A stretch of 32,000 nucleotides of DNA from contig FP565575.1 in assembly GCA_000091165.1 (NCBI GenBank), forward strand, positions 1,470,001-1,502,000. Reading direction: 5' to 3'. Below, one piece after another: positions 1 through 10,901 of this stretch (within the stretch, counting starts at the first letter, position 1; the number at the start of each line of letters is the position of its first letter). The translations under genes and the position numbers were made by a program. Under the pieces are notes generated by a model. The model saw only the letters and a program-made list of their open reading frames with translations. It was not told where the DNA came from and did not search any database. Source of the stretch: Candidatus Methylomirabilis oxygeniifera. GTDB taxonomy: Bacteria > Methylomirabilota > Methylomirabilia > Methylomirabilales > Methylomirabilaceae.

Positions 1-256
1 CACGATGTCTGGCCAGGCGCACCTCGCCCACAGCCGGATCGAGGAGCCAGATCTCCCCGGCCTCCATCTCTGTGACCGTCAAGGTGGCATCGAGGACCCG
101 ATCGAGGACCTCGGTGAGGGCCAACGAGCTGCTGGCGGCTTGCCCAACCCTGCTGAGGGCCTCGAGTTGGTTCGTGCGTCGTCTGTATTGCTCGACCTGC
201 GCCTGCAACGCGGCGTCGGATCGGGCTTGCTCCGCGGAGAACGTCTCTTCCGGCAT
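1..256 (-). CDS. GAF-domain protein paralog, first ~85 codons only (gene runs off the window at coordinate 1; absent from the ORF track because truncated)
   Basis: Minus-strand ATG at 256. Translation MPEETFSAEQARSDAALQAQVEQYRRRTNQLEALSRVGQAASSSLALTEVLDRVLDATLTVTEMEAGEIWLLDPAVGEVRLARH aligns with the N-terminal GAF region of the 715..1461 protein (LEALRIVGQI...ILERILDVTVTILEMEAGEICLLDRIRGEV). Nucleotide similarity between ~30-110 and ~1240-1320 is visible. Confidence 0.6.
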   Translation of the reverse strand, partial: MPEETFSAEQARSDAALQAQVEQYRRRTNQLEALSRVGQAASSSLALTEVLDRVLDATLTVTEMEAGEIWLLDPAVGEVRLARHR

Positions 257-390
257 AACTATGCTCCACTCTCTCGACGGCGGACACCGTGGTCACAGAT
301 CCGCCTACGTGTCAGTTCCCCTATCCTGGTTGCACAATCGGTCACTCCGACCGGTATCCCCATGGATGATCCGCCCGCGTACCGACGAAC

Positions 391-407
391 ATGCAAAATC
401 AACGCCA
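391..407 (-). promoter_or_regulatory. sigma-54 (-24/-12) promoter candidate for the truncated GAF gene
   Basis: Minus strand reads TGGCGT-TGATT-TTGCAT. GG and GC are spaced exactly as in the TGGCAC-N5-TTGCW consensus, ~135 nt upstream of the ATG at 256. Confidence 0.5.
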
Positions 408-467
408 CACTGCTTCTCTCCGATCCTCATGCTTGAGAGGCCCGACAGGTAACGGCTCGTGTGTATC

Positions 468-510
468 CGGAAACACAAAAGCCTTTCATCGAAGATCCGA
501 TGAAAGGCTT
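468..510 (-). terminator. Intrinsic terminator T1 (module M1)
   Basis: Perfect 13-bp stem AAGCCTTTCATCG/CGATGAAAGGCTT (479-491 / 498-510) with a 6-nt loop, followed on the minus strand by TTTTGTGTTT. Confidence 0.75.
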
Positions 511-545
511 CATCGCCCTCTCTCACGACACCGCCATCAGCACCG
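504..545 (-). promoter_or_regulatory. Twin hexaloop hairpins P1/P2 of module M1 (candidate ANTAR-binding antiterminator)
   Basis: Minus strand: P1 is CGGTGCT[GATGGC]GGTGTCG (526-545), linker TGAGAG, P2 is AGGGC[GATGAA]GCCTT (504-519). The P2 3' strand plus loop are the first bases of the T1 stem. Confidence 0.5.
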
Positions 546-668
546 TTGGCAAGAGATCCACGCCCTGAGAGTGGTATCACCCTCAGGCCTCGATTGCCTG
601 AGAGCCGTCAACTACGAGTGTGCACAACTCGACCGCTTTGTCACCAACCTCGCGTCGAGTTGAACGAC

Positions 669-698
669 AGTATAGATGACATCGTGCGCGACTGTCAA
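669..698 (-). promoter_or_regulatory. sigma-70 promoter of module M1
   Basis: Minus strand TTGACA-N18-TATACT, starting 17 nt after the stop codon of the 715..1461 gene. The predicted transcript is ~190 nt up to T1. Confidence 0.6.
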
Positions 699-714
699 GT
701 TCCCGTCGCGCCGC

Positions 715-1461
715 CTAATTCACATTATAAGAGCTGAGCATCTGCAGCGCCCTTAACGCGTTGTGGCAGTCGCGGGCGATGCCGGTCTCCGGCTCGTCCG
801 TCGCCCGCAGTCGCGCTGTGGCGACTAACTGATTCTGGGTGCACTGCACCTGTTCAATCTTTGCCGTAAGCTGCTCGATAGAACGCCTGAGTTCCTCGTA
901 CAGGCAGGCGTCCGCCGCAACCATTCCCACGGCTGCTCCGATCGTGATCAGGAGGCGTAGATCTGCCTCTGTGAACGAGCGCGCCCGACACGCGGCGATA
1001 TCGAGGGAACCGATGACCTCCCCTTTGGCCCGCAGCGGGACGGCCACGAAGGTCTTGAAGCCGGCCGTGACCACGCTGCGCCGGAGAAAGCGAGGCTCTT
1101 CCGCCAGATCGGTAATGACCACGGGCTCCCCGGTCTCCACCACCAGCCCGGGAATCCCTTCACCGACGGCAAACCGCGTGCGTTCCAGGAAGGCCTCCTC
1201 GATAAGGCCGTAATGCCGCTCGACGCACACCTCTCCTCGGATCCTATCGAGCAGACAGATCTCCCCGGCCTCCATCTCCAGAATCGTCACGGTCACGTCG
1301 AGGATCCGCTCGAGAATTTGATGGATCGGCAGCGAACCGGTGATGATCTGGCCGACAATGCGAAGAGCCTCCAGGTGTCTGGTGTGGTAGAGGTGCTGTC
1401 TTACCATGGTCTCTACGTCAGCATACAACTTAGTCCCCTTCACCGTCGCCCCCTCCTCCAT
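715..1461 (-). CDS. GAF-domain protein ending in a HisKA_3-like H-box helix, with no kinase ATPase domain
   Basis: The ORF 715..1494 opens with GTG. An ATG at 1461 (or GTG at 1464) follows a GGAAGGAGG SD and is the likelier start. GAF-like core: ...LEMEAGEICLLD...FVAVPLRAKGEVIGSLDIA.... After a coiled coil the C-terminus reads GIARDCHNALRALQML, resembling the IARELHD..aQ.L phospho-acceptor helix; the protein stops 10 aa later. Confidence 0.7.
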   Translation of the reverse strand: MEEGATVKGTKLYADVETMVRQHLYHTRHLEALRIVGQIITGSLPIHQILERILDVTVTILEMEAGEICLLDRIRGEVCVERHYGLIEEAFLERTRFAVGEGIPGLVVETGEPVVITDLAEEPRFLRRSVVTAGFKTFVAVPLRAKGEVIGSLDIAACRARSFTEADLRLLITIGAAVGMVAADACLYEELRRSIEQLTAKIEQVQCTQNQLVATARLRATDEPETGIARDCHNALRALQMLSSYNVN

Positions 1462-1490
1462 CACGGCCCGCCTCCTTCCGGGGTATCCAT

Positions 1491-2261
1491 TCACGGCATC
1501 TCCCCGGCCTGCACAATGATCTGCGCAACCGCCGCCAGCCTGAGGTTGCGCGCCTGGCTCTCCCGCTGCAGTTTTCGCATCGCCTCGGCCTCAGATAGTC
1601 GCAGCCGCTCCATAAGGATCCCTTTCGCCTTCTCGACCAGCTTTCGCTCCTCGAGCGCCGTCTCCAGCTCCCGCGTCCGCTGTTCCAAATACCGGACCTT
1701 CGCCTGGAGCTGGCGCACCGTCGCCTCGGAGAAGCGCTCCGGTTGGCCGCCGGGCTCGGGGGCGGGGCCGCCCTGCGCCGGCCGGTCGACGGCGACGGCC
1801 CCCGTCTCGGCCTCCGCGGTGGGCTGCAGGTACAGCCGGACGTCGCAGCCCTCGCGCGCCGCCGTGTCCCGCGGCGCGACTACCACCTTGCCGTAGCCGA
1901 AGCGCTCCGCGGCTATCCGCCGGAGGCTCTCCCACCACAGGTGGCAGAGGGGCGCCGTCTGTCCGCCCTCGTCGCGGCATATCGTACAGGTGAAGCGGAT
2001 ATGATCGGGCGCCACCCGGTACTGCATCGCGCCGCCCAGTTGCTGCGCCAGTCGGACGACGGCCTTGGCGTAGGTGTCCGGGGTGAGGGGTGACGGCGCG
2101 TCCTCGCACGGCGCCTCCGCCATACGCAGGAGGCGGGCGGCGGCGCGCAGGGCCTGCTGCCGTCCCTGCGAGTTGCCCCACTCGTCCAGCAGGCCCGCCG
2201 TGTGCCCGATGAAGTCGCGCAGGAGCGGGACGCGCTTCCCAAGGATCTGCTCATTCACCAT
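1491..2261 (-). CDS. ANTAR-domain RNA-binding antiterminator with an uncharacterised Cys-containing N-terminal domain
   Basis: The C-terminal LEERKLVEKAKGILMERLRLSEAEAMRKLQRESQARNLRLAAVAQIIVQ matches the ANTAR signature (eRk.IeqAKGiLm...s..eAf..Lr..S...n.kl..vA..iv). It is preceded by a coiled coil. The N-terminal ~150 aa carry FTCTICRDEGGQTAPLCH. The stop overlaps the GTG at 1494 of the next ORF. Confidence 0.8.
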   Translation of the reverse strand: MVNEQILGKRVPLLRDFIGHTAGLLDEWGNSQGRQQALRAAARLLRMAEAPCEDAPSPLTPDTYAKAVVRLAQQLGGAMQYRVAPDHIRFTCTICRDEGGQTAPLCHLWWESLRRIAAERFGYGKVVVAPRDTAAREGCDVRLYLQPTAEAETGAVAVDRPAQGGPAPEPGGQPERFSEATVRQLQAKVRYLEQRTRELETALEERKLVEKAKGILMERLRLSEAEAMRKLQRESQARNLRLAAVAQIIVQAGEMP

Positions 2262-2280
2262 GCTCGCCTACTCCCTACCT

Positions 2281-2327
2281 CCACAAAGACAAAAGCCTCG
2301 CATCCAAGACGAATCGATGCAAGGCTT
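2281..2327 (-). terminator. Intrinsic terminator T2 (module M2) in the leader of the ANTAR gene
   Basis: Minus strand: 12-bp stem AAGCCTTGCATC/GATGCGAGGCTT (one G-U pair), 11-nt loop, then TTTTGTCTTTGTGG. It ends 20 nt before the ANTAR ATG. Confidence 0.7.
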
Positions 2328-2363
2328 CATCACCTTCCCCCCTTAGCCACCATCATCAGTACC
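2321..2363 (-). promoter_or_regulatory. Twin hexaloop hairpins P1/P2 of module M2
   Basis: Minus strand: P1 core ACT[GATGAT]GGT within GGTACTGATGATGGTGGCT (2345-2363; the stem extension is imperfect), linker AAGGGGGG, P2 is AAGGT[GATGAA]GCCTT (2321-2336) overlapping the T2 stem. Confidence 0.45.
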
Positions 2364-2443
2364 CCAGGGGACACACACGATTATATGCTTCCGGCAATCC
2401 GACCGGCTTACGGCTTGATGTTGATCTCACTTTCCTCACATAA

Positions 2444-2472
2444 AGTATAGACCCATGCGTCAGCGAGGTCAA
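2444..2472 (-). promoter_or_regulatory. sigma-70 promoter of module M2 / ANTAR operon
   Basis: Minus strand TTGACC-N17-TATACT in the only AT-rich patch of the 625-bp divergent intergenic region. It predicts a ~175-nt leader. Confidence 0.65.
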
Positions 2473-2547
2473 TATGCCGCCTGAGTCCATCGGGTGGAGG
2501 GTGAGGGATCGGCACATCACTTGCTTCTCATCACACGCGAATGGGGT

Positions 2548-2577
2548 TAAGCGGGGGACCGAAGCCGCCGATATACA
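2548..2577 (+). promoter_or_regulatory. sigma-28 (FliA/SigD)-like promoter candidate upstream of module M3 and the first MCP gene
   Basis: TAAG-N15-GCCGATAT compared with the consensus TAAA-N15-GCCGATAA/T: the -10 octamer matches completely and the -35 matches 3 of 4. The -10 overlaps TATACA, similar to the TATACT -10 of M1 and M2. Confidence 0.4.
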
Positions 2578-2733
2578 CAACAGCGCGTTGCGTCGGTCGA
2601 CGACGCGCCGCTGCTGCCGACCGGAAAGATTTGCCGCTCTGCGGATCGCTTTTTCCGGAGGAGCGCTCCTGGTCGAACGTAAGTCAGTCAGACCCTGATA
2701 GCGTCGGGACTATCAGGGCGGCGTAATCTCCCC

Positions 2734-2775
2734 GGCTACTGATGAGGGTGGCCAGGGACAGGGTGACGAAGCCTT
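2734..2775 (+). promoter_or_regulatory. Twin hexaloop hairpins P1/P2 of module M3
   Basis: P1 is GGCTACT[GATGAG]GGTGGCC (2734-2753; 7 bp including G-U pairs), linker AGGGAC, P2 is AGGGT[GACGAA]GCCTT (2760-2775) overlapping the T3 stem. Confidence 0.5.
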
Positions 2776-2810
2776 TCATCGAATGATCGATGAAAGGCTT
2801 TTATATTTTG
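2769..2810 (+). terminator. Intrinsic terminator T3 (module M3), 77 nt upstream of the first MCP start codon
   Basis: Perfect 14-bp stem AAGCCTTTCATCGA/TCGATGAAAGGCTT with loop ATGA, followed by TTATATTTTG. The U-tract is on the plus strand only. Confidence 0.75.
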
Positions 2811-2886
2811 TGGCGCAGTAGATCACAGCAAACGGAGCCGGATCCCGAAACGGGAGGTCAGGCTCGCACTATGAGAGGAGAGGATC

Positions 2887-4593
2887 ATGCAGCGGTTTAA
2901 GAATCTCAAGACCATGACCAAATTGTTGCTGGCGTTCGCGATCGTCAGCGTCATCGCAGGCGCGCTGGGCTACTTAGGCATCCGCAACATGGGCATCATG
3001 AACGCCGGCACCGAAAATATCTATCAGGTGCAACTCCTGCCCAGCCTTGAGTTGGCCAGAATGCGCGGCCTCTCGCTCCAGATCCGAGCCCGGGTATGGC
3101 AAGCCATCGCCGCCCCCACCCTCACTGAGGCCATGGATTCGATCGATCGAATCCATGACCTGCAGAAGGAACTCGACGAGGCGCGTGAACAGTTTGTCCC
3201 AACCATCCGGAGCCAGGAGGTACGGGAGACCTTTGAAACCTATGTGAAGGCCGACAAGGAATACGAGACCGTCAGAGAAGAGGGAACCATCAAGGCCATC
3301 CTGGCCGGTAACCGCGAAGCCACCATGACGGCGGCCAAGGTCGCCGGTGAGAAGCTCCAGGTCTCTAACCAGGCCCTCAACCACGTCATCGAGGTCAAAA
3401 AGGGCATCGCGACGAAAAAGTTTGAGGAGGCGCAGTCGGTGTACGCCTCAAGCCGGGTCACGATGATCGGCTTCGTCGTCGGCGGTCTACTGATCGGTCT
3501 GGCGCTGGGATACTTCATCGCGAACCTGATCGCTCAAGCGCTGAAGCGGATCATGGCGGCCACGGAGCTGGCTGCCTCCGGCGATCTCACGGTGCGGATT
3601 GCGGTAGACACCAAGGACGAACTCGGCCTGATGGGGGCGGCATTCAACCGGATGCTGGAGAGTTTCCACGACAGCATGCGGGAGGTGCAACAGGCCTCCA
3701 ACCATACCGCCGCCGCCTCCCAACAGCTCGCCGCCGGCAGCGAGGAGCTCTCCAGCGGCGCCCAGGAGCAGGCTGCCTCCCTGGAAGAGACGGCCGCCTC
3801 TCTGGAACAGATGACCTCGACCGTCAAGCAGAACGCCGACAACGCCCGCCAGGCCAACCAGATGGCGGTCAGCACACGGAACGAGGCCGAGCAGGGCGGA
3901 AGTGTGGTCCAGGCTGCCGTGGCCTCCATGGAGGCGATCAGCGCCTCCTCCAAGCAGATTGCCGCCATCATCACCACCATCGACGAAATCGCCTTCCAGA
4001 CCAACCTGCTGGCGCTGAATGCCGCCGTCGAAGCCGCCCGCGCCGGGGAGCAGGGCCGGGGCTTTGCCGTGGTGGCCAGCGAGGTCCGGGCGCTTGCCCA
4101 GCGATCCGCCGCCGCCTCCAAGGAGATCAAGGCGCTGATCACCGACTCCGTCGCGAAGGTCGAAGACGGGGCCAGGCTGGTCCATCAGTCCGGCGACACC
4201 CTGACCGAGATCATGGCCTCTATCAAGAAGGTGGCCGACCTTGTCGCCGAGATCTCGGCCGCCTCGCAGGAGCAGGCGCAGGGGATCGAGCAGGTCAACA
4301 AGGCCGTCACCCAGATGGATAGTGTCACCCAAAGCAACGCCGCCCAGACCGAGCAACTCAGCTCAACCGCGCAGTCGCTGGCAGCGCAGGCCGAGGAGCT
4401 GTCGGCCCAGGTGGCGAAGTTTAAGTTAGCATATGGGGCAGCGGTCGGCTCTCAGCCGTCCGCCGTCAGCCAGGAACCGAGGAGTAAGGTCGTGCCCTTC
4501 AAAGGCAAGGCGAGGAGCAAGAGCGACGCGCCCAAGGTTGTGGCAGCCGCCACCGGGACCGATGCCGCGTACGGCACGTTTGAGGAGTTCTAG
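2887..4593 (+). CDS. Methyl-accepting chemotaxis protein, four-helix-bundle (4HB_MCP-like) sensor + HAMP + signalling domain
   Basis: GAGAGGAGAGG SD before the ATG. N-terminal TM segment ([20 protein letters not shown]), a ~160-aa helical periplasmic region, a second TM and a HAMP domain. Canonical hairpin tip [42 protein letters not shown]-terminal sequence TFEEF. Confidence 0.9.
3574..4593 (+). repeat. Copy 1 of the duplicated MCP HAMP/signalling module (~1.02 kb)
   Basis: Colinear with 5788..6807 and of equal length (339 codons). By eye ~90% identity at both protein and nucleotide level, with long identical runs. Confidence 0.85.
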
Positions 4594-4601
4594 TAGGTAG
4601 A

Positions 4602-4655
4602 TAGGCTGAAGGCGGGAAGGCTGTTAGGCGACTTCAGTCCTCGGTCTTCAGCCTA
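4602..4655 (+). terminator. Terminator-like hairpin after MCP1, built from GGCTGAAG / CTTCAGCC motifs
   Basis: TAGGCTGAAG (4602-4611) pairs with CTTCAGCCTA (4646-4655). There is no clear U-tract. Confidence 0.35.
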
Positions 4656-4713
4656 AACTCCTGCTTGCAGGCTGAAGACTCACTGTTAAGAGACAAGAGA
4701 GGAATCGAAGATC

Positions 4714-6807
4714 ATGCGGCTACAGTGGTTTAAAAATCGTAACATTAAAACGAAGTTAATACTTGGCTTCGGCTTAGCGGGTCTGGCACTGGTAGCAACA
4801 CCATTGGCTGCGTACGTCATGCAGAGCAGCGGGGAAATTCGAACGGCACGTCTGGAGCTGACCGGGCTCGCGCCGTCCAAAGTGCTACTCAGGGTCGTTC
4901 AGTTGACGCAACAGCACCGCGGGCTCTCATCCAATGTGCTAGGCGGAAACACGGCGATGGAGGCGCAACGGGCTGCCAAGCAGGTCGAGGTAGACAAAGC
5001 GGTCGAGACATTCGACGCAATCGTGAAGTCCGAGATCCATGATTCCGCACTCGCGGGCGCCTGGAGCACAACGGTCGAGCGCTGGAGGGCGTTAGCGAGC
5101 AGCGTTTCGTCGCACGCGATCATCGGCAAAGAGAGTGTGGCCAAGCACACGGCGCTGATCGCCGACAACCTGAAGGTACTCGATCTGACATTGGATTATT
5201 TTGGTCTGTCGCTCGACCCGAGTGCGGATAGCTATCATCTGGTTATGGGAGTATTAGTCTATATGCCGGACCTCACCGAACTGCTCGGACAGGCGCGAGC
5301 GCGCGGTTCGCTCTATCTGGCGACCAAAAGTTTGACCGCTGAGGACCGCGTCGAGCTTGCCGCGATCATCGATACGGCGGACAGACAACACGAACAGGTG
5401 GTACGTGAAATCGATAAGGCGATGGCTCTGAACCCTCAGGTGAAGGCCGCGCTGGCCGGCCTCGTACAAAACGGTGCCGGGCTTGTACAAAAGGCAATGG
5501 ATCTCACCAGGACTCATGTAGTAGAGGCTAAGATCCTCAGCTATCCATCGACCGATTACTTTACGGTGTTTACCCAGGTGATTGACGATCAGTTCAAGCT
5601 GCTTTCTGCAGCGACGGAGGAGCTGGATGCGGCTCTCCAGACGCGCATCGCCGAGCTACGGAGCGGACAGGTCAAGATGCTCGGCATCATCGCGTTGGCG
5701 ATTGCGTTGGCGGTGTGGATGGGGACGGTGATTAGCCGTTCAATCAGCGGCCCGGTGCGCGAGGTGATGGGTGCGACAGAAAAGGCAGCGAGTGGCGACT
5801 TGACCGTTCGTGTCAGCCTCGACAGCAAGGACGAGCTCGGCCTGATGGGCGCGGCCTTGAACCGGATGTTGGATAGCTTCCACGACAGCATGCGGGAGGT
5901 GCAGCAGGCCGCCAACCATACTGCCGCTGCCTCCCAGCAGCTCGCCACCGGGTCCGAGCAACTGAGCAGCGGCGCCCAGGAGCAGGCATCTTCCCTGGAA
6001 GAGACGGCGGCCTCCCTGGAGCAGATGACCTCGACCGTCAAGCAGAACGCCGACAACGGCCGCCAGGCCAATCAGATGGCGGTCAGCGCCCGGGATGGGG
6101 CCGAGCAGGGCGGCGCGGTGGTCCGGGAGGCCGTGGCCTCGATGGAGGCGATTACCCAGTCTTCCAAGCAGATCAGTGCGATTATTACTACTATCGACGA
6201 GATCGCCTTCCAGACCAACCTGCTGGCGCTGAATGCCGCCGTCGAAGCGGCCCGCGCCGGCGAGCAGGGAAGAGGATTTGCCGTCGTGGCCAGCGAGGTT
6301 CGGGCGCTCGCGCAACGCTCGGCGGCGGCCTCCAAGGAGATCAAAGCCCTGATCACCGACTCGGTGGCCAAGGTGGAGGAGGGAGCCGCGCTGGTGAATC
6401 AGTCCGGCAACACCCTAACCGAGATCGTGGCCTCCGTTAAGAAGGTCGCCGACCTGATCGCCGAGATCTCGGCTGCCTCGCAGGAGCAGGCGCAGGGGAT
6501 CGAGCAGGTCAACAAGGCCGTCACCCAGATGGATTCGGTCACTCAGAGCAACGCCGCCCAGACCGAGCAACTCAGCTCAACCGCGCAGTCGCTGGCGGCG
6601 CAGGCGGAGGAACTATCGGCCCAGGTGGCCAAATTCAAGCTGGCAGAGGCAGCCGTCAGCGGTCAGCCGTCAGCGGTCAGCCGTACAACCTCCGCCAAGG
6701 TCATTCCACTGAAAGGCAAGGCCAGGGGCAAGGGTGAAGGGCCCCAGCCAGCGGTCGTGGCGGCCACCGGAACCGATGCGACGTACGGCACGTTTGAGGA
6801 GTTTTAG
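4714..6807 (+). CDS. Methyl-accepting chemotaxis protein with NIT-like (nitrate/nitrite-sensing type) periplasmic domain + HAMP + signalling domain
   Basis: N-terminal TM, then [44 protein letters not shown], which resembles the NIT-domain signature (..LQ.ERG.s...l.s.g......). A ~280-aa helical sensor, a second TM and a HAMP domain follow. The signalling domain is near-identical to MCP1, and the C-terminus is TFEEF. Confidence 0.85.
5788..6807 (+). repeat. Copy 2 of the duplicated MCP HAMP/signalling module
   Basis: See 3574..4593. Similarity continues into the 3' flank (CTTCAGCCTAAAC vs CTTCAGTCTAAAC). Confidence 0.85.
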
Positions 6808-6825
6808 GAAAGGCTAGAGGGAGAA

Positions 6826-6861
6826 AGACTGAAGGGGGAAGTACCTAAAAGCCTTCAGTCT
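6826..6861 (+). terminator. Terminator-like hairpin after MCP2
   Basis: AGACTGAAGG (6826-6835) pairs with CCTTCAGTCT (6852-6861). No U-tract. Confidence 0.35.
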
Positions 6862-6901
6862 AAACCCCTAACGGCTGAGAACGATGGGGAAAGGAGGCGC
6901 T

Positions 6902-7306
6902 ATGCGAACTGATTATAACCGCGTTGCGGTCGCGGGCTACCTTACGGCAGATTCCGTATGGCGGAAAACCCGCAACGGGCGCTCCGTCACTCATTTCTAT
7001 CTGACGACCCGTCATCACAAACCCACCGGCGATATTGAGACCTCGTCGTTCCAGATCACCGCATTCGGCGACCTCGCTGACCGCTGCGCCGGCCTGCGGG
7101 TGGGACAGGTCGTACGGGTTGAAGGGCGGCTGCACGAGGATCGCTGGATGGGGCCGGACGACCGACGACGCTCGAAGGTCGTGATCGTCGCCACACATAT
7201 GCATCTGGTGCGCGAGTCCACGGAAGCGAACCGCGGGGAGGGCGCTATCATGTCACAGCAAAGACCGGAGGATCATCCGAATGTCGTCGCATGCGCCGCG
7301 GCGTGA
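6902..7306 (+). CDS. SSB-like OB-fold protein lacking the acidic C-terminal tip
   Basis: The ATG at 6902 follows AAAGGAGG (the ORF track starts earlier, at 6884). NRVAVAGYLTADSVWRKTRNGRSVTHFYLT...FQITAFGDLADRCAGLRVGQVVRVEGRLHEDRW...KVVIVATHMHLV follows the SSB OB-fold pattern. The tail ends ...PNVVACAAA, not D-D-D-I-P-F-like. Confidence 0.6.
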   Translation: MRTDYNRVAVAGYLTADSVWRKTRNGRSVTHFYLTTRHHKPTGDIETSSFQITAFGDLADRCAGLRVGQVVRVEGRLHEDRWMGPDDRRRSKVVIVATHMHLVRESTEANRGEGAIMSQQRPEDHPNVVACAAA

Positions 7307-7341
7307 TAGAGGGGTAACCACAAGGCACGAAGACGGGCGTG

Positions 7342-7371
7342 GCGCTCGGGGCAGTGCAGCCCCCCGAGCGC
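7342..7371. terminator. GC-rich hairpin between convergent genes (possible bidirectional terminator)
   Basis: GCGCTCGGGG (7342-7351) pairs with CCCCGAGCGC (7362-7371). It lies between the SSB-like stop (7306) and the PilZ stop (7372). No U-tracts. Confidence 0.4.
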
Positions 7372-8037
7372 TCACACCGTTCCGATCCGCGTCTTGACTT
7401 GACATTTCGTAATGAACTGTCTCAGCTTTCTTTCATCCGCTCGCTGTAGAGCCATCATACGGAGTGCGATCCTGCTCTGGTTCTGTCCGAGATGCCTGAA
7501 AGACTCACTCCGGACGACCCTCGCGGCAGCATGAATGGGCGACTCGCCGCGGGAGAGCGTCATCGAGAGCTCGACGGCATCCTCCGCCTCGAGGCGCCCA
7601 CTGAATACGATGAGAAGTCCGCCACAACTGATGTTCACTGCTGTGGCTCGTTCTCGCTTCACCGGCGTCCGCTCGCCTTTCGGTAGAATCAATTCTACGT
7701 CGAACAGGCACGGCTGCCTCACGTCTTCTCTTCTCTGAACTCGGCGTACCTCTCCAGGGGGCGACAGATGCAGCAGGAGGCCGGACGAGTGGAGCAGCGT
7801 GGAGCGAAAACGATAGAGGGCATCGTCGGCTGTCGCTGATACCTGCACGTCTCTCGCCGAGTTCCGAGACGTTGTCGACACGCCCCCGTCTTTGTCATGA
7901 GTCAGCGACACGACGAGTGTCTGCGAATCGATGCGCACGATGGTCCCGATCATTGAAACGGGAGGATCGGCGAACTCAACCTGCACCTTGAGGCCGTTAC
8001 AGATCTTGCTCTCCACTTCGATCTCCCAACTCCGCAC
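7372..8037 (-). CDS. PilZ-domain c-di-GMP receptor, YcgR/MotI-like (PilZN + PilZ)
   Basis: RxxxR motif (QRREDVRQ) and D/NxSxxG motif (NISCGG) at the correct spacing, with an N-terminal beta-rich ~100 aa as in YcgR-type proteins. The ORF-track start (8037) is a GTG without an SD. The GTG at 8016, preceded by GGGAG, is more likely. Confidence 0.75.
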   Translation of the reverse strand: MRSWEIEVESKICNGLKVQVEFADPPVSMIGTIVRIDSQTLVVSLTHDKDGGVSTTSRNSARDVQVSATADDALYRFRSTLLHSSGLLLHLSPPGEVRRVQRREDVRQPCLFDVELILPKGERTPVKRERATAVNISCGGLLIVFSGRLEAEDAVELSMTLSRGESPIHAAARVVRSESFRHLGQNQSRIALRMMALQRADERKLRQFITKCQVKTRIGTV

Positions 8038-9521: not shown

Positions 9522-10901
9522 TCATCGAAAACTCTCCACCAGCCTCCGTACCGCCATACGGGTGGCGTGCTCAAATGACCATCCGACCGTCCCGGCGCTC
9601 CCCGGCGCGATCTTCCCGGCCCACAGCAGCGCTCCGGACGGCAGGGCGATGAGCCTCGCCTCTACCCCGACTCTCGTCACCCTGACCGTTCCCTCCCAAT
9701 GCTGATCCACGCCATATAGATTGACCATCATGACCCGCCGTACCCCAAGCGCTTCCCAATTGACCCCGCCCATATCGAGTGTTGAGTGCTGAGCGTTGAG
9801 TGCTGAGTCGCCGCGTGAAAGCCGTTGGTCGGCGAGCCAATCCCAGCCGCGCGATCGAGCCTCCTCCCGTACCCAATCGGGTCCCCGCGCGTCGATCCCG
9901 GCGTGCGACAGCTCAAGGACAAAGAGCCTGGCCACCTCCTCGACCAACGGTCGATCCTCAACGGACACGCGCGCCGGCAGGACTGCGGTCCGACCCTCCC
10001 TGGAGATGACAACCGGCTGGAGTGCGGGCGGAGCAGCCGGCGATGCGCATCCTCCGACCAACACACCCACGCTCAGGAGAACGGCCAACACCAGCTCGCG
10101 AAGGGTGAAGGTTGCGCTCTCTTCTGCGATGAGGTCGTCCCGGTGGAGCTTGATCTGAAGAAGTCTGGCCCGCATTCGAAGAATGGCCGAGGTATGGATC
10201 TGTGAGACGCGTGATTCCGAGACCTCCAGCACCCGGCCGATCTCTTTCATGGTCAGTTCCTCAAAGTAGTATAAGGTGAGCACCAGCCGCTCTTGAGCCG
10301 GCAACGCCTCGATAATTCCGCCGAGGAGTCGGACCCGCTCCCTACGGGCCGCTTCAGTAGACGGATCTCGACCAGCCCGGTCCGGCAGCTCCCATATAAG
10401 CCGGTCGCTCTCCGTACCGTCGGCCTCAACGCCGGGCTCATCGAGCGACACCAACACCATCCCCCTGATCTCGCCAAGCGTGCGCCAGTAGGTCTCCCGA
10501 TCCATGCCGAGCGCCGCAGCAACCTCGTCATCGCTGGGCTCCCGTCCGAGGTCGACCTCCAGCCGCACCAGCGTCTGCTGGATCTCCCGCGCCTTCGCTC
10601 GGAGTGAACGTGGCGCAAAATCCTGCGCTCTGAGATCATCCAGAATAGCGCCGCGGATCCGGTATTGGGCATAGGTCGCGAACTCCGACGGCTGATCCGG
10701 GTCATAGTGCTCGACGGCGCTCACCAGACCCACCGCACCGGCACTCTCCAGATCGTCCAACTCGACACACGACGGCAGTTGCAACGAGAGCCGCCCGGCG
10801 ACCTGGCGCACAAGGGAGATGTTCGCCGTAATCAACCGATCTCTCAGCCCGGGGTCCTTCGTCTGTCGGTAGGCTTTCCAGTCTTCCCGCGTGATCTCCA
10901 T
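9522..10901 (-). CDS. fliA: Flagellar sigma-28 (FliA/WhiG family) fused in frame to a TM/lipobox segment and a ~175-aa extracytoplasmic domain
   Basis: Residues 1-250 show sigma-70 regions 2-4 (DLESAGAVGLVSAVEHYDP..FATYAQYRIRGAILD ; LPAQERLVLTLYYFEELTMKEIGRVLEVSESRVSQIHTSAILRMRARL). Residues 269-285 are LVLAVLLSVGVLVGGC. Residues 286-459 are a globular-looking domain. The frame has no stop and no plausible internal start. Confidence 0.8.
   Translation of the reverse strand: MEITREDWKAYRQTKDPGLRDRLITANISLVRQVAGRLSLQLPSCVELDDLESAGAVGLVSAVEHYDPDQPSEFATYAQYRIRGAILDDLRAQDFAPRSLRAKAREIQQTLVRLEVDLGREPSDDEVAAALGMDRETYWRTLGEIRGMVLVSLDEPGVEADGTESDRLIWELPDRAGRDPSTEAARRERVRLLGGIIEALPAQERLVLTLYYFEELTMKEIGRVLEVSESRVSQIHTSAILRMRARLLQIKLHRDDLIAEESATFTLRELVLAVLLSVGVLVGGCASPAAPPALQPVVISREGRTAVLPARVSVEDRPLVEEVARLFVLELSHAGIDARGPDWVREEARSRGWDWLADQRLSRGDSALNAQHSTLDMGGVNWEALGVRRVMMVNLYGVDQHWEGTVRVTRVGVEARLIALPSGALLWAGKIAPGSAGTVGWSFEHATRMAVRRLVESFR

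Follow-up and report, generated by a model that had tools for sequence, protein, structure and literature searches.

The stretch of DNA analysed here, referred to as the window, comprises 32 kb of the genome of Candidatus (Ca.) Methylomirabilis oxyfera (assembly GCA_000091165.1, contig FP565575.1, positions 1,470,001 to 1,502,000), a member of a genus of nitrite-dependent methanotrophs, and holds three copies of a structured RNA leader module (M1, M2 and M3) around a gene for a regulator with an ANTAR domain. Five genes lie within positions 1-7000 of the window, namely two GAF genes (one of them partial), one ANTAR gene and two chemoreceptor genes. The ANTAR regulator gene (1491-2261, minus strand) encodes 256 amino acids with the ANTAR domain at residues 198-250 (PF03861, 66.5 bits), and its product is the proposed binder of the modules. 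Directly 3' of it is a GAF gene (715-1494, minus strand) whose product is a possible sensor partner. The longest open reading frame (ORF) for this GAF gene begins at a GTG and has an overlap of 4 nucleotides (nt) with the ANTAR stop codon (1491-1494), and gene callers place the GAF start 30 nt past the ANTAR stop in related contigs. Whichever start holds, the two genes form an operon, and the pair is also present in related loci. The second GAF gene (<1-256, minus strand) has its ATG at 256 and exits the window, so that only its 5' part is seen; a GAF gene of around 230 amino acids occupies this position in Logan contigs and in the related contig L068. On the plus strand there is a chemoreceptor gene (4HB_MCP-HAMP-MCPsignal, 2887-4593) starting with an ATG at 2887, followed by a second chemoreceptor gene at 4714-6807.

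Each module is about 80 nt long and consists of a hairpin P1, a small hairpin P2 and an intrinsic terminator of 13-15 base pairs (bp), the 3' strand of P2 being at the same time the 5' strand of the terminator. The three copies align with a mean column identity of 83%, and all were found at the places and with the sequences given in an initial annotation of this DNA. M1 (466-545, minus strand) lies 5' of the second GAF gene; its P1 is at 539-545/526-532 (loop GAUGGC), its P2 at 515-519/504-508 (loop GAUGAA) and its terminator at 497-511/478-492, with a U-tract to 468. M2 (2280-2364, minus strand) is the leader of the ANTAR gene, with P1 at 2358-2364/2345-2351 (loop GAUGAU), P2 at 2332-2336/2321-2325 (loop GAUGAA), the terminator at 2316-2328/2292-2304 and a U-tract to 2281. 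M3 (2734-2813, plus strand) precedes the chemoreceptor genes and has its P1 upper stem at 2734-2740/2747-2753 (loop GAUGAG, 2741-2746), P2 at 2760-2764/2771-2775 (loop GACGAA, 2765-2770), the terminator at 2768-2782/2787-2801 and a U-tract to 2810. M1 and M3 each have a terminator of 15 pairs, and a consensus scan found both; that of M2 has 13 pairs, interrupted by an internal bulge. In all three modules the hairpin is followed by UUUU(G/A)U(N)UUU. From the end of the U-tract of M2 to the ANTAR ATG there are 20 nt, the same spacing as originally reported, compared with 77 nt between the end of M3 and the chemoreceptor ATG and around 210 nt between the end of M1 and the ATG of the second GAF gene.

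The stretch between P1 and P2, which the initial annotation had treated as an unpaired linker, turned out to be largely paired. Its GGGA (GAGA in M1) mostly pairs with an upstream YCCC (UCUC in M1) to give a lower P1 stem, so that P1 becomes an interrupted helix of 10-14 bp. In M3 this extended P1 covers 2728-2758 (plus strand), where UCCC at 2729-2732 and GGGA at 2755-2758 pair beneath the upper stem. Among 29 copies examined for it, most are predicted to have the lower stem, and in 14 of the 29 it beats 95% of flank shuffles. The spacing between P1 and P2 is 6-8 nt when counted from the upper stem and 2-3 nt if the lower stem forms.

Folding of the modules in both states, as had been proposed, gave P1 plus the terminator for the full modules, while P1 plus P2 was the minimum-energy fold of M2 and M3 when cut at the 3' side of P2. 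Since P1 plus P2, at -7.7 to -15.6 kcal/mol, is much less stable than the terminator fold, at -28 to -39.5 kcal/mol, read-through would require a stabilising factor.

A covariance model built from the three copies (P1 and terminator) and run over the 32 kb with all filters off gave 97.3 bits for M1, 85.3 bits for M2 and 98.1 bits for M3, with the rest of the window at 13 bits or below, save for the antisense reading of the palindromic terminators. With a model of P1 and P2 only, the three copies scored 55-68 bits and the next match 13 bits. For a wider sample the genomic context of eleven ANTAR relatives was fetched, and metagenome DNA was scanned with a pattern of the P2 loop and terminator only, which is independent of ANTAR genes. 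In total 31 copies were obtained from the window and 13 related contigs (14 DNA stretches), the relatives being kin of Ca. Methylomirabilis and metagenome contigs. The metagenome scan returned 27 contigs, four of them with true copies and the rest with chance matches. The true copies stand before chemoreceptor, kinase and ANTAR genes and, on one contig (L079), before an unnamed ORF of 197 amino acids without a Pfam match, which heads a string of GAF and PAS-ANTAR genes.

All 31 copies lie in intergenic leaders and are co-oriented with the next gene, which extends to the relatives what had been claimed for the window. The other genes found 3' of the modules encode ANTAR, GAF, GAF-kinase-receiver and dCache-HAMP kinase proteins and the chemoreceptor, whose gene is divergently transcribed. 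In every related contig that holds an ANTAR gene together with its upstream DNA, a module directly precedes the ANTAR gene, and an ANTAR gene is seen wherever the contig is long enough. In the metagenome contig with the unnamed ORF (L079) the ANTAR gene is around 2 kb from the nearer module, and PAS domains replace the sensor domain related to MetOD1 with the ANTAR subtype unchanged. The closely related genome GCA_040960765.1 has five good copies and one weak match in 20.8 kb, inside a cluster of three ANTAR paralogs, and no module copy was found among the flagellar genes flanking it. Orthologous loci thus retain the module, with 40-94% identity between their ANTAR proteins and that of the window. 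The initial annotation had named dispersal in the manner of repetitive extragenic palindromes or miniature inverted-repeat transposable elements (REP/MITE) as grounds for giving up its proposal; no such behaviour was seen, since the three copies in 32 kb are all in leaders and the copies from the metagenome scan lie beside ANTAR, kinase or chemoreceptor genes.

A few candidate copies were set aside. Scanning genome contigs for the P1 and P2 loop patterns gave 58 matches, all of them single chance matches in coding sequence without a terminator; the source genome and its close relative were not among the contigs returned. A weak model match at L086:2837-2933 resembles the modules in its terminator only and was not counted as a member. 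Neither was a degenerate match of 21 bits at L103:1140-1231 (plus strand), behind a TTGACA-N17-TAGATT promoter and upstream of a major facilitator superfamily (MFS) transporter gene, which may be a diverged member. The same metagenome contig carries two tandem modules at L103:231-439 (minus strand), forming a direct repeat of around 129 nt before a chemoreceptor gene.

Structure was tested on the 31 copies in a MAFFT alignment (A10). The 7-bp upper stem of P1 shows two-sided changes in six of its seven pairs, for example GC/CG/AU/UA at one pair and CG/UG/UA/GC at another, and none of 500 column shuffles reached the observed covariation score. P2 (5 bp) is 94% paired across the copies, and the main helix of the terminator is 99% paired with two-sided changes in four pairs. 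When the 3' partners were slid by 1-3 columns as a control, pairing fell from 89-94% to 34-60%. The compensatory changes first noticed among the three window copies therefore extend to the whole set and indicate a real RNA structure.

The mutual exclusion of P2 and the terminator, also proposed from the window copies, is borne out by the alignment. GCCUU is common to both helices, and within it alignment column 47 pairs with column 34 in P2 and with column 71 in the terminator. The triplets formed by the P2 5', shared and terminator 3' columns are G-C-G in 11 copies, A-U-A in eight, G-U-A in six and G-U-G in three, and A never stands opposite C in the 34-47 pair (Fisher p = 0.005, uncorrected for phylogeny). 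The shared column covaries with both partners, so that one nucleotide pairs with two alternative partners as mutually exclusive helices predict. A third fold, in which the P2 loop GAUGAA would pair with the following UUCAUC, was rejected because loop position 3 varies (U in 19, C in nine and G in three copies) without compensation at the invariant A. The CAUC/GAUG of the terminator stem (A10 columns 50-53 and 65-68) is invariant in 31/31 copies and places a third GAUG-like motif in each module, in the 3' strand of the terminator.

Published ANTAR targets consist of two hairpins whose hexaloops carry A at position 1 and G at position 4 (PMC3369931; PMC8164766). In the crystal structure of EutV with RNA, G4 is the sole specifically contacted base and is stacked on Tyr164, while A1 has no protein contact and is thought to aid loop folding (PMC8934654). 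Both loops of the present module read G-A-Y-G-N-N. In loop 1, G1 is found in 27/31 copies, A2 in 30/31 and G4 in 31/31, and in loop 2 each of G1, A2 and G4 is found in 31/31. The P2 loop has 6 nt in all 31 copies and the P1 loop 6 nt in 21 and 7 nt in 10. Both stem-loops of the tandem exceed the minimum of 3 bp, with 7 bp in P1 and 5 bp in P2; the linker length falls within published values (5-12 nt in eut leaders, 2-25 nt in an actinobacterial survey); and the PF03861 match at 1491-2261 supplies the ANTAR gene in the locus. All the ANTAR-target features tested are hence present except A1. The initial annotation had itself cautioned that A2 and G4, rather than the canonical A1 and G4, are conserved, and this caveat is real, with A at position 2 and G4 invariant. 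Given that G4 is invariant in both loops and is the only base specifically contacted by EutV, the feature relevant to recognition is kept even though the A1 rule does not hold. CsrA- or TRAP-type sites were also looked for in the loops and linker, where no consistent GGA or (G/U)AG repeat pattern was found.

The ANTAR protein of the window is CBE68782.1, annotated in Ca. Methylomirabilis oxyfera as a 'protein of unknown function'. It has around 20 full-length relatives at 40-94% identity, the other matches being generic REC-ANTAR proteins that match in the ANTAR domain only. When 1.84 billion cluster representatives were searched with the ANTAR domain, 14 matched at E < 1e-10 and the scores after that fell to generic ANTAR levels, which indicates that the subfamily is small. 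In 10 of 19 family members the N-terminal region of 190 residues matches Pfam MetOD1, and this region contains conserved Cys and His residues. The ANTAR domain can be aligned to those of EutV, Rv1626, NasR and AmiR; Met (residue 228) stands at the place of EutV Tyr164 and Gln (residue 236) at that of Met172, and both are invariant in the subfamily. Among the 153 nearest ANTAR domains this combination is confined to the subfamily. Met (32 domains) and Gln (50 domains) are each common on their own, however, and the pair was for this reason set aside as a specificity signature; it serves as a lead, and nothing here rests on it.

Promoters were found for all three leaders. The sigma-70-like promoters claimed earlier for M1 (TTGACA-N18-TATACT, 669-698, minus strand) and for the ANTAR leader with M2 (TTGACC-N17-TATACT, 2444-2472, minus strand) are both present and are the sole two sigma-70-like sites in 1-7500. 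In orthologous ANTAR leaders TTGAC-N17-TATAnT is retained in most loci around 150 nt upstream, and the ANTAR start codon is 15-25 nt past the U-tract in most of them. The promoter of M3 had been overlooked. In the chemoreceptor leader, TAAG-N15-GCCGATAT (2548-2574, plus strand), with a start predicted at around 2582, resembles the sigma-28 (FliA/SigD) consensus TAAA-N15-GCCGATAT. Its TTAAG and GCCGATA are unchanged across eight orthologous chemoreceptor leaders. Spacing and elements thus fit a sigma-28-type promoter, and a gene of the fliA type lies in the window (9522-10901, minus strand; named FliA/WhiG in the source records); its product is the likely reader of the 2548-2574 site. This sigma factor is unusually long (459 amino acids, with an N-terminal extension) and is called a 'modular protein' in one source; flhA is also encoded further along the window. 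With a sigma-28-type promoter and an attenuator in one leader, M3 would be under dual control, by sigma-28 at initiation and by the attenuator during elongation.

The chemoreceptor leader is conserved along around 370 nt in eight loci. Upstream of M3 it contains a hairpin (2693-2718, plus strand) whose CUGA/UCAG base is conserved and whose upper stem covaries, alignment pairs 206-219 and 207-218 staying paired through two-sided changes. A similar hairpin with a 10-bp stem and an AUAC loop lies upstream of M1 (564-588, minus strand), so that both of the upstream hairpins noted originally are present. The chemoreceptor leader (2580-2890, plus strand) has other hairpins at around 2590-2625 and at 2623-2660 (CCGGAAA...UUUUCCGG around GCCGC...GCGG), and one past the M3 terminator at 2835-2865 (plus strand), immediately 5' of the ribosome-binding site. 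An anti-antiterminator in which, according to RNAalifold, upstream CGCYC pairs with the P2 5' strand of the chemoreceptor leader was discarded as unsupported, there being no two-sided pair changes. The M1 leader (256-700, minus strand) resembles the chemoreceptor leader in having the upstream hairpin, the module and a remnant of the post-terminator region, here behind a sigma-70-like promoter. M1 was seen in this species and in GCA_040960765.1 only, and from its sequence the M1 leader seems to have arisen by partial duplication of the chemoreceptor leader, which would explain the gap of around 210 nt, apparently non-coding, before the GAF start codon.

Collectively our data show that the module is a real, conserved and previously unannotated cis-regulatory RNA. 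Very probably it acts as an on/off switch whose type is known but whose loop sequence is unusual. Conservation, covariation, mutual exclusion, distribution and folding energies all support the candidate ANTAR antitermination regulon put forward in the initial annotation, and we consider it probable that the modules are ANTAR-type transcription-attenuation leaders forming an autoregulated antitermination regulon wired to signalling genes; within this reading, protein binding and read-through are predicted. Transcription would start 155-230 nt upstream, at a sigma-70-like promoter for M1 and M2 and, for M3, at one of the sigma-28 type. In the default state, formation of the 13-15-bp terminator would end the transcript at the U-tract. 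When active, the local ANTAR protein, composed of a MetOD1-like sensor domain, a coiled coil and the ANTAR domain, would bind as a dimer to the GAYGNN loops of P1 and P2, and in doing so stabilise the weak 5-bp P2 and sequester GCCUU, with which the terminator stem begins on its 5' side. With the terminator blocked, RNA polymerase would continue into the downstream gene. The regulator would in this way control its own ANTAR-GAF operon through M2, the second GAF gene through M1 and the FliA-dependent chemoreceptor operon through M3, the position of M2 before the ANTAR-GAF operon making the circuit autoregulatory. In relatives, paralogous ANTAR genes and hybrid histidine kinases would also come under its control.

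A number of observations weigh against this proposal. Position 1 of the loops is G, with A at position 2, and no alternative loop register was found that gives A1/G4 consistently; the ten more distant copies, moreover, have a 7-nt P1 loop reading RAYGKUU. The terminator stem is unusually conserved (GCCYUUCAUC/GAUGRARGGC, with 6 of 13 pairs invariant), beyond what the model needs. P1 is weak in M1 (-2.4 kcal/mol) and in M2 contains a G-G mismatch, as foreseen in the earlier caveat that the latter stem is imperfect. If the lower P1 stem forms, it leaves a gap of 2-3 nt to P2, close to the minimum of published linkers (2-25 nt). M1 is far from its gene and has the look of a partial duplicate. One copy, at L068:17910-17969 (minus strand), around 120 nt upstream of a dCache-HAMP-GAF kinase-receiver gene, has a good P1 and P2 (29 bits with the dual-hairpin model) and no recognisable terminator or U-tract. 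In the protein, the EutV RNA-contact residues Tyr164 and Met172 are replaced by Met and Gln. Finally, Rfam gave no match in the window at the gathering threshold, with only chance-level matches in 1-3200 (E 0.8-8), and whether Rfam 15 has an ANTAR-target model was not checked.

Some of these features would suit an attenuator that answers a small ligand, as a riboswitch does, or another RNA-binding protein, the ANTAR, GAF and chemoreceptor genes then being mere targets. Such a switch would not be bound by the A1/G4 rule that the loops break, and could account for a degree of conservation beyond the needs of an ANTAR site in the lower P1 stem, the terminator sequence and the G-rich 3' flank, as well as for the long conservation of the chemoreceptor leader with its extra hairpins. 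The core common to all copies, however, is P1, P2 and the terminator only, and the upstream leaders of the M1/M3 type and the M2 type differ. Two loops with an identical four-base motif suit a dimeric protein and not a ligand pocket. Furthermore, there is no Rfam riboswitch match, and beside the modules no other RNA-binding regulator gene is retained, whereas every contig of sufficient length includes an ANTAR gene. We therefore regard this explanation as improbable.

It appears still less likely that the modules are the 3' ends of stand-alone, trans-acting small RNAs of around 155-230 nt, each driven by a promoter of its own and ended by a constitutive terminator. The copies do have their own promoters and strong terminators, and the distance of M1 from the next start codon would be natural for a separate transcript, but co-orientation with the next gene in 31/31 copies would not be, and an ANTAR start 15-25 nt past the U-tract in most loci is too close for a separate promoter. 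A conserved alternative pairing of the terminator 5' strand would also be pointless in a constitutive terminator. Least credible of all is a non-regulatory repeat or mobile element (REP/MITE-like), or a recent duplication held alike by gene conversion, since the resemblance of M1 to a partial duplicate, the tandem duplicate in one metagenome contig and the near-identical terminator sequences are set against few copies (three in 32 kb, and five good and one weak in 20.8 kb of the related genome, all in the ANTAR cluster), an orientation that is always that of the downstream gene, a P1 that diverges freely yet keeps its pairs, a lack of terminal inverted repeats or target duplications, and retention at orthologous positions down to 40% protein identity.

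If the modules are indeed ANTAR-type leaders, they add to the ANTAR class an unannotated family of cis-regulatory RNAs that is absent from Rfam, and imply that an 'A1/G4' search rule overlooks real ANTAR targets. A variant loop together with a variant ANTAR domain would then be a natural pair for studies of RNA specificity. The data also suggest that expression of chemoreceptor and signalling genes in Ca. Methylomirabilis oxyfera is controlled by antitermination besides sigma-28. To our knowledge no genetic manipulation of this organism is possible yet, and regulatory maps derived from sequence are valuable for that reason. The variant is confined to a narrow lineage and the kind of mechanism is already known, so that the advance is an incremental one, of moderate relevance to specialists in RNA regulation and in Methylomirabilis biology. 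More speculatively, a lineage-restricted ANTAR subfamily with MetOD1-like or PAS sensors, and with Met and Gln at the places of EutV Tyr164 and Met172, might read a changed code, G1-A2-Y3-G4, in a long-stemmed P1 and a short P2, and might join several paralogous antiterminators with GAF partners and hybrid kinases in an autoregulated cascade gating elongation of the sigma-28-initiated chemoreceptor transcript; we put this forward as a tentative and rather doubtful extension.

Among known systems, the NasR/nasF leader of Klebsiella and the AmiR/amiE leader of Pseudomonas are alike in that a leader hairpin 5' of a terminator is the target of an ANTAR antiterminator, either one-component or partner-controlled. 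The GAF gene adjoining the ANTAR gene recalls the sensor genes of AmiC-AmiR and NasS-NasT, and by this analogy the adjoining GAF protein may be a sensor partner, although a GAF-ANTAR interaction is pure inference. The present system differs from both in its MetOD1-like sensor with a conserved Cys, its GAF neighbour and its targets.

The actinobacterial ANTAR-target RNAs of the PdtaR class are similar in being dual stem-loops found with a lineage-adapted covariance model, and that survey showed that phylum-specific variants of ANTAR targets escape general models (Mehta et al. 2021, PMC8164766). A1/G4 is kept in those RNAs, most of which overlap ribosome-binding sites and act on translation, whereas here there is a terminator in all but one copy, and the A is at position 2.

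The eut leaders of Enterococcus faecalis and their regulator EutV (Ramesh et al. 2012, PMC3369931; Walshe et al. 2022, PMC8934654) resemble the present system in having two tandem small hairpins with similar loops and G4, a P2 whose 3' strand doubles as the 5' base of the intrinsic terminator, a gene for an ANTAR protein in the locus and several leaders with the same motif per locus. The loops are A1-x-x-G4 there and G1-A2-Y3-G4 here, and P1 is here a long interrupted helix of 10-14 bp with 2-3 unpaired nt before P2. EutV is a REC-ANTAR response regulator, in contrast to the one-component MetOD1-like or PAS-ANTAR proteins found here. Furthermore, the eut leaders serve a catabolic operon, whereas the modules described here stand before the regulator's own gene and before genes of signalling and chemotaxis.

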